Position numbers and translations under genes: made by a program | Notes under the pieces: generated by a model | The model's input: the letters and a program-made list of their open reading frames with translations, nothing else | What the model was told of the DNA's origin: nothing | Database searches by the model: none | Part shown: one piece after another, positions 2,033 through 4,557 of the stretch | Layout: each line of letters begins with the position of its first letter | Position numbering within the stretch: the stretch's first letter is position 1 | DNA from: Escherichia coli | Lineage (GTDB): Bacteria; Pseudomonadota; Gammaproteobacteria; Enterobacterales; Enterobacteriaceae | Assembly (NCBI RefSeq): GCF_003334255.1 | Contig: NZ_QOWU01000088.1 | Direction: 5' to 3' (one strand) | DNA: 9,434 nt

Positions 2033-4557
<2,525 letters not shown>

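Follow-up and report, generated by a model that had tools for sequence, protein, structure and literature searches.

A previously published amber codon in the diguanylate cyclase gene dgcQ of Escherichia coli: occurrence beyond enteroaggregative strains and signs of a single origin followed by recombination

Introduction

DgcQ (YedQ) is one of about a dozen diguanylate cyclases of Escherichia coli and is linked to CsgD-independent cellulose synthesis. In strain 1094, cellulose synthesis that depends on YedQ has been described alongside a YedQ-independent pathway. The closest counterpart of the allele considered here was reported by Richter et al. (2014, EMBO Mol Med, Suppl. Table S1; PMC4287979), who listed a change of CAG (Gln) to TAG (stop) at nucleotide 934 of yedQ in strains 55989, HUSEC041 and LB226692, the last of these being a strain of the 2011 O104:H4 outbreak. 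At the same nucleotide EDL933 was entered 'as W3110', the site was marked 'Confirmed' by resequencing, and a restart of translation at the nearby ATG in TAGGCAATG was proposed (PMC4287979). For at least six enteroaggregative E. coli (EAEC), PMC11327459 cites Povolotsky & Hengge (2016) for a stop at codon 312 and AUG at 314.

Two further natural stop codons are instructive for comparison. In Shigella flexneri 2457T, dgcQ (S2095) has a stop at codon 56 and a methionine at 59; carried on a high-copy T7 plasmid, this nonsense allele gave two proteins and raised c-di-GMP, and c-di-GMP did not clearly fall when dgcQ was deleted from the S. flexneri chromosome (Ojha et al. 2024, J Biol Chem; PMC11327459). 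The likeness to the present allele lies in the gene, the premature stop and the in-frame methionine close behind it, but restart at codon 59 keeps nearly the whole sensor, whereas restart at Met314 would leave out the first transmembrane segment (TM1) and all but a small part of the periplasmic region. The second case is bcsQ of E. coli K-12 W3110, which has TAG at codon 6; K-12 is cellulose-negative, and a sense codon at this position repairs the defect (PMC5635695). Like TAG312 of dgcQ, it is a natural amber codon in the cellulose/c-di-GMP network that became fixed in a lineage, although it affects a different gene and has a proven phenotype. Three separate lesions of dgcQ itself can be listed, namely TAG312, the codon-56 stop of S. 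flexneri (PMC11327459) and a deletion at nucleotide 1283 in E. coli E2348/69.

The stretch of E. coli DNA analysed here, called the window, is 9434 bases long and is over its whole length 100% identical to strain MLI023K1/K2, isolated from human stool in Mali. Codon 312 begins at nucleotide 934, so the mutation in the window and that of Richter et al. are the same. The window allele and that of 55989, HUSEC041 and LB226692 agree in gene, nucleotide, codon and the TAGGCAATG context, and its dgcQ is 100% identical to those of 55989 and the O104:H4 genomes; they differ in the strain, MLI023K1 having a 4.6-Mb genome and coming from a human stool sample in Mali. The sequence-only reading of the window, in which the allele was treated as possibly new, is overtaken on this point by its publication, with PCR resequencing, in 2014 (PMC4287979). 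As allele, resequencing and the idea of a restart were all published then, another carrier genome adds nothing new. What is added here is a frequency of ~4% that extends beyond EAEC, a single origin with an intragenic breakpoint, the absence of supE in the source genome and of tyrT-type supF, and the placement of the stop within the periplasmic region. Compared with the published EAEC carriers, TAG312 was found in at least 207 complete genomes ranging far outside EAEC, with a second haplotype in ST648, avian pathogenic (APEC) and livestock strains.

Results

The window contains rcsA, dsrB, yodD, DsrA, yedP, dgcQ, yodC, yedI, yedA, vsr, dcm and yedJ, which is the usual set of neighbours, and the order yodC-dgcQ-yedP is the same in K-12, O104:H4, MLI023K1 and ST648. 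Besides this gene order, the orthologue of dgcQ is marked by a CHASE7 domain, a GGDEF domain with both active site and I-site, and two transmembrane segments, the latter located by a hydropathy scan only and not by a dedicated topology predictor. The GGEEF motif and the RAQD (RxxD) I-site are intact in the translated GGDEF domain. The features of the gene are as follows.

2863..4557, minus strand: dgcQ (yedQ), 564 codons plus stop, with one in-frame amber codon; RefSeq pseudogene 'internal stop'
3622..4557, minus strand: 5' ORF with GTG start, codons 1-311 and then TAG; TM1 and the greater part of the periplasmic region, with CHASE7 complete
about 4426..4488, minus strand: TM1, residues ~24-44 (Kyte-Doolittle, 19-residue window; segment within residues 19-49)
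3877..4437, minus strand: CHASE7 periplasmic sensor, residues 41-227 (Pfam PF17151, E = 1.7e-94, full model length)
3622..3624, minus strand: TAG amber codon 312, ancestral CAG (Gln); C to T at gene nucleotide 934, plus-strand position 3624
3619..3621, minus strand: GCA codon between TAG and ATG
3616..3618, minus strand: ATG, ancestral Met314, two codons past TAG; candidate reinitiation codon
2863..3618, minus strand: 3' ORF with ATG start, 251 codons; 43-residue former periplasmic tail, TM2 and GGDEF domain
about 3418..3489, minus strand: TM2, residues ~357-380 (hydrophobic segment 355-380)
2887..3366, minus strand: GGDEF catalytic domain, residues 398-557 (Pfam PF00990, E = 1.7e-46)

On the minus strand the DNA around the split reads ...GAA CTG GCC TTG CTG GCG TAG GCA ATG GAA CAT..., and translation of 2863-4557 in a single frame meets one internal stop (...RELALLA, stop, AMEHDT...). 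The 311 codons ahead of the stop, the stop itself, one alanine codon and the 251 codons of the 3' ORF sum to 564 codons, the length of dgcQ annotated in K-12 MG1655 (1695 nt). An uninterrupted 564-codon frame is absent from dgcQ of the window; the locus is orthologous and the gene is not intact. The window dgcQ is a Q312amber allele that resulted from a single-base nonsense substitution and was known already.

The sequence-only reading had named the gene dgcQ, had placed TAG, GCA and ATG in frame at these positions, had counted 564 codons across the flanking ORFs as in K-12 DgcQ, and had described a nonsense substitution in a colinear gene free of deletion or frameshift. These statements all stand: the codons were found in the minus-strand read, the ORF list and the translation, the length agrees with the MG1655 annotation, the identity of the gene follows from domains, neighbours and near-identity to K-12, and there are zero indels relative to K-12. 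Its placement of the stop exactly at the domain boundary before TM2 was wrong, as codon 312 lies within the periplasmic region, in the membrane-proximal part that follows CHASE7, ~45 residues short of TM2.

Codon 312 is CAG (Gln) in K-12 MG1655 and in the distant strain E2348/69, with a gap-free alignment around the site, which confirms the earlier guess of CAG as the ancestral codon; K-12, checked for the same TAG, has CAG. Within a 61-mer centred on the site, the C/T at codon 312 is the sole difference between the window and these two strains. Over the whole gene the window is 98.6% identical to K-12 at the nucleotide level, with 24 substitutions and no indels: 20 of the substitutions are synonymous, V25I, V90I and L539F are conservative missense changes, and the remaining one is Q312amber. 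Replacing TAG by CAG gives a 'repaired' window gene that matches the intact, annotated copies in NZ_CM194531.1 and NZ_CM194529.1 at 100% identity, and the mutant allele is therefore one base away from a living intact allele. The former (food-transport container, Hungary) has CAG and differs from the window at 7 positions over 8.7 kb (78-8752), position 3624 included. Its haplotype may be the one from which the mutant haplotype descended, still surviving, or it may have arisen by true reversion.

Of the 5426 complete E. coli genomes, 5364 gave a match to the 1695-nt dgcQ query, the gene being named 'cellulose biosynthesis regulator diguanylate cyclase DgcQ'. The CAG form of the 61-mer occurs exactly in 3037 complete genomes and the TAG form in 207 of the 5426 (~4%), the latter being a lower bound since TAG alleles with a neighbouring SNP escape an exact match. 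A sequencing or assembly error at this codon was dropped from consideration: nothing was found in its favour, the exact TAG 61-mer comes from 207 independent complete genomes produced in many laboratories and on many platforms, more than 10 separate O104:H4 assemblies are among the carriers, and PCR resequencing of three strains bore out the TAG (PMC4287979), so that the probability left to an error is negligible. The RefSeq annotation (PGAP) treats dgcQ as a pseudogene with an 'internal stop' in all eight of the TAG genomes inspected (2011C-3493, MLI023K1 and six more).

The 207 carriers include O104:H4 and 55989-like genomes, a strain named ST648, APEC O2-211, 2009C-3133 and an O78 isolate, together with isolates from pig, dog, poultry, river and wastewater. 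Identity to the window dgcQ is 100% over 1695 nt in the O104:H4 outbreak strains 2011C-3493, C227-11, HUSEC2011 and others, in EAEC 55989, VR50 and MLI023K1, and in pig, dog and wastewater isolates. A second TAG312 haplotype of dgcQ was found in six genomes (ST648, APEC O2-211, 2009C-3133, chicken strain 104, O78 strain 3 and 13P477T). Its 12-13 differences from the window all fall between gene nucleotides 65 and 513 (window 4045-4493), and gene nucleotides 514-1695 are identical in all 8 TAG genomes examined, which represent both haplotypes. The ST648 strain and the window show 2 differences over 78-4044, a stretch that starts with rcsA and takes in the 3' two thirds of dgcQ, and about 10-15 differences per 500 bp from 4045 onward. 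This pattern is a recombination mosaic with its breakpoint inside dgcQ.

3625..4045, minus strand: interval of the recombination breakpoint between the TAG dgcQ haplotypes

The near-identical block of ~4 kb that ends within dgcQ points to one mutational origin followed by horizontal spread and not to recurrent mutation. The comparison fits a TAG312 that arose once and was then distributed among lineages by homologous recombination, in which case the moved block would comprise the 3' two thirds of dgcQ together with yedP, dsrA, yodD, dsrB and rcsA. The same C-to-T change could instead have arisen repeatedly across lineages, either at a mutational hotspot or under convergent selection, and the occurrence of TAG312 on two dgcQ haplotypes and in very different backgrounds (O104:H4 EAEC, the ST648-named strain, APEC O2-211, pig, dog and poultry isolates) would agree with this. 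However, independent mutations do not account for the identity of nucleotides 514-1695 in 8/8 TAG genomes or for the block that ST648 shares with the window, and on this haplotype identity recurrent mutation was rejected as very improbable. The mutated C, furthermore, sits in GCGCAGG, outside any Dcm site (CCWGG), which rules out deamination at a Dcm hotspot. Other pseudogenes were noted near TAG312 in two of the carriers, yedP being frameshifted in 2009C-3133 and drpB having an internal stop in ST648.

If the amber codon were read through, whether through a suppressor tRNA or because natural readthrough is high, full-length DgcQ would be made and the gene would be functionally intact. Readthrough was named as a possibility by Richter et al. 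(PMC4287979), and some nonsense diguanylate cyclase genes of S. flexneri gave apparently full-length products under overexpression (Ojha et al., PMC11327459). A search for supE and supF, which had been suggested together with the sequence-only reading, found neither in the genes covered, namely glnV and glnX of MLI023K1 and tyrT-type genes in 5426 genomes. Four tRNA-Gln genes, two with TTG and two with CTG, lie in the tRNA operon by asnB in MLI023K1, and each of them is wild type; with the wild-type CTG anticodon in both glnV and glnX, suppression by supE is ruled out for this strain. A query of the supE44 type matched exactly in 155 genomes, and among the matches listed (60) all were K-12 laboratory strains such as C600, DH5alpha, DH1 and J53. 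The tyrT-type supF query gave zero exact matches in 5426 genomes, a result that applies to tyrT-type suppressors since the query cannot separate one derived from tyrU; the check as a whole covered glnV/glnX and tyrT-type genes. Basal readthrough of UAG in wild-type E. coli usually amounts to a small fraction. UAG is no selenocysteine codon, and E. coli is not known to have a pyrrolysine system. It is very doubtful that the gene is kept intact in this way, and meaningful readthrough of TAG312 is in general improbable.

The Met314 ATG is ancestral, being present in K-12 and E2348/69, and was not created by the mutation. In TAG-GCA-ATG it is separated from the stop by a 3-nt spacer and is in frame with the GGDEF domain. 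Pairing of the 20 nt ahead of ATG314 with the anti-Shine-Dalgarno sequence was calculated at -3.2 kcal/mol, compared with a mean of -2.4 over the 32 ATG triplets of the dgcQ sense strand and with values between -6.2 and -11.6 at the real gene starts of the window. No helping Shine-Dalgarno element was thus found ahead of ATG314, the pairing being near the background of internal ATGs, and any restart would consequently rely on termination-reinitiation across the 3-nt gap. Termination-reinitiation is an established mechanism in E. coli. The predicted restart product, devoid of TM1 and of nearly the whole sensor, would consist of the 43-residue tail (net charge -2), TM2, a segment beginning RRM... 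(net +2) and an intact GGDEF domain; these charges around TM2 are compatible with a predicted N-out, C-in insertion. The 3' ORF is identical and free of secondary lesions in all 8 TAG genomes examined; as it shows no variation, it gives no power for dN/dS. In sequence terms a lesion-free 3' ORF would fit a young neutral pseudogene and a maintained gene equally, and the shared haplotype block, with 2 SNPs in 4 kb, is too young for selection on the 3' ORF to be within reach. A search of the searchable literature found no protein or c-di-GMP measurements on the TAG312 allele.

Several observations concern the rest of the window. The DsrA small RNA lies at 1766-1852 on the minus strand between yodD and yedP, as expected here (Rfam RF00014, 102.5 bits, full length). 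The genes dgcQ (minus strand, ending at 2863) and yedP (plus strand, 2051-2866) converge with a 4-base 3' overlap (2863-2866), as in K-12. The last 73 bases (9362-9434) belong to an IS1-family element, of which they form the terminal inverted-repeat end (GGTAATGCTGCCAACTTACTGATTTAGTGTATGATGG...); the element cuts off the 5' end of yedJ and leaves a remnant at about 8846-9360 on the minus strand. On its far side the IS1 of MLI023K1 directly adjoins an hchA whose 5' end is missing, an arrangement implying that the genes between yedJ and hchA were lost in an IS1-associated deletion. At the other end, window positions 1-77 are the 3' part of fliR and differ at 31 of 77 positions from O104:H4, ST648, NZ_CM194531.1 and K-12, near-identity beginning at position 78. 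Position 77/78 may be either a sharp recombination junction or the edge of an unusual fliR allele (WP_021530520.1) in MLI023K1.

Discussion

Taken together, it is very probable that the window carries the published Q312amber allele, that the one-polypeptide cyclase is lost, and that the allele had a single origin and spread by recombination. The substitution ends the full-length frame within the periplasmic sensor region, ~45 residues ahead of TM2. Since the frame ends at codon 312, a single polypeptide with the arrangement TM1-CHASE7-TM2-GGDEF is impossible by normal decoding. The main product is expected to be a membrane-anchored periplasmic fragment of 311 residues. As such a product would be without the catalytic domain, signal-regulated DgcQ activity would probably be lost or strongly reduced, and the allele is somewhat more likely than not to be effectively null or a weak hypomorph. 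Some of the ribosomes that stop at UAG, 3 nt from the ancestral AUG314, may reinitiate there by coupling and not by Shine-Dalgarno recruitment; that a sensor-less TM2-GGDEF product of 251 residues exists and has measurable cyclase activity is a tentative suggestion that we consider rather doubtful.

A more far-reaching form of this suggestion is that the gene has been split or given a new function: efficient reinitiation from UAG312 to AUG314 would yield either a constitutive, sensor-less TM2-GGDEF protein or two parts, 1-311 and 314-564, that reassemble, and selection would have kept the arrangement. The stop and the start are just 3 nt apart, the GGDEF domain, GGEEF motif and RxxD site are intact, and the charges about TM2 (-2 and +2) would suit N-out, C-in insertion; the allele is present in 207 genomes, has crossed lineages and shows secondary lesions in 0/8 of those examined. 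On the other hand, AUG314 is without a Shine-Dalgarno sequence, the 43-residue tail would need to pass through the membrane with neither TM1 nor a signal peptide, and the haplotype block, at 2 SNPs in 4 kb, is too recent for selection to be visible in it. GGDEF enzymes, besides, need dimerisation, which is normally supported by the sensor region. From the literature, restart was proposed by Richter et al. (PMC4287979), the stop-then-Met dgcQ of S. flexneri gave two products and c-di-GMP (PMC11327459), and 55989 and HUSEC041 are still cellulose-positive (PMC4287979); yet other cellulose routes exist, through AdrA/DgcC and through YedQ-independent pathways. In view of these points a split or neofunctionalised cyclase maintained by selection appears unlikely. 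It is more unlikely still that TAG312/AUG314 is a working rearrangement, sensor-less or split, whose benefit would explain the lesion-free spread by recombination to unrelated lineages.

The sequence-only reading had expected a change of c-di-GMP output from the loss of a cyclase that feeds cellulose and biofilm control; for an altered cellulose output, published phenotypes give no support: 55989 and HUSEC041, both TAG312 carriers, stain strongly with calcofluor and make cellulose, and the cellulose defect of the outbreak strain was assigned to a frameshift in bcsE (PMC4287979). Because E. coli has other routes to cellulose, its production by 55989 is uninformative on the activity of DgcQ.

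Loss of the gene by other means was seen in E2348/69, where dgcQ has a 1-nt deletion at gene nucleotide 1283, within the GGDEF domain, and is annotated 'frameshifted'. In this other pathotype the gene was inactivated independently, which suggests that dgcQ is dispensable in some lineages; unlike TAG312, the deletion destroys the catalytic domain, so that a restart could rescue no activity. A description of the c-di-GMP network in pathogenic lineages, O104:H4 among them, depends in part on the state of DgcQ.
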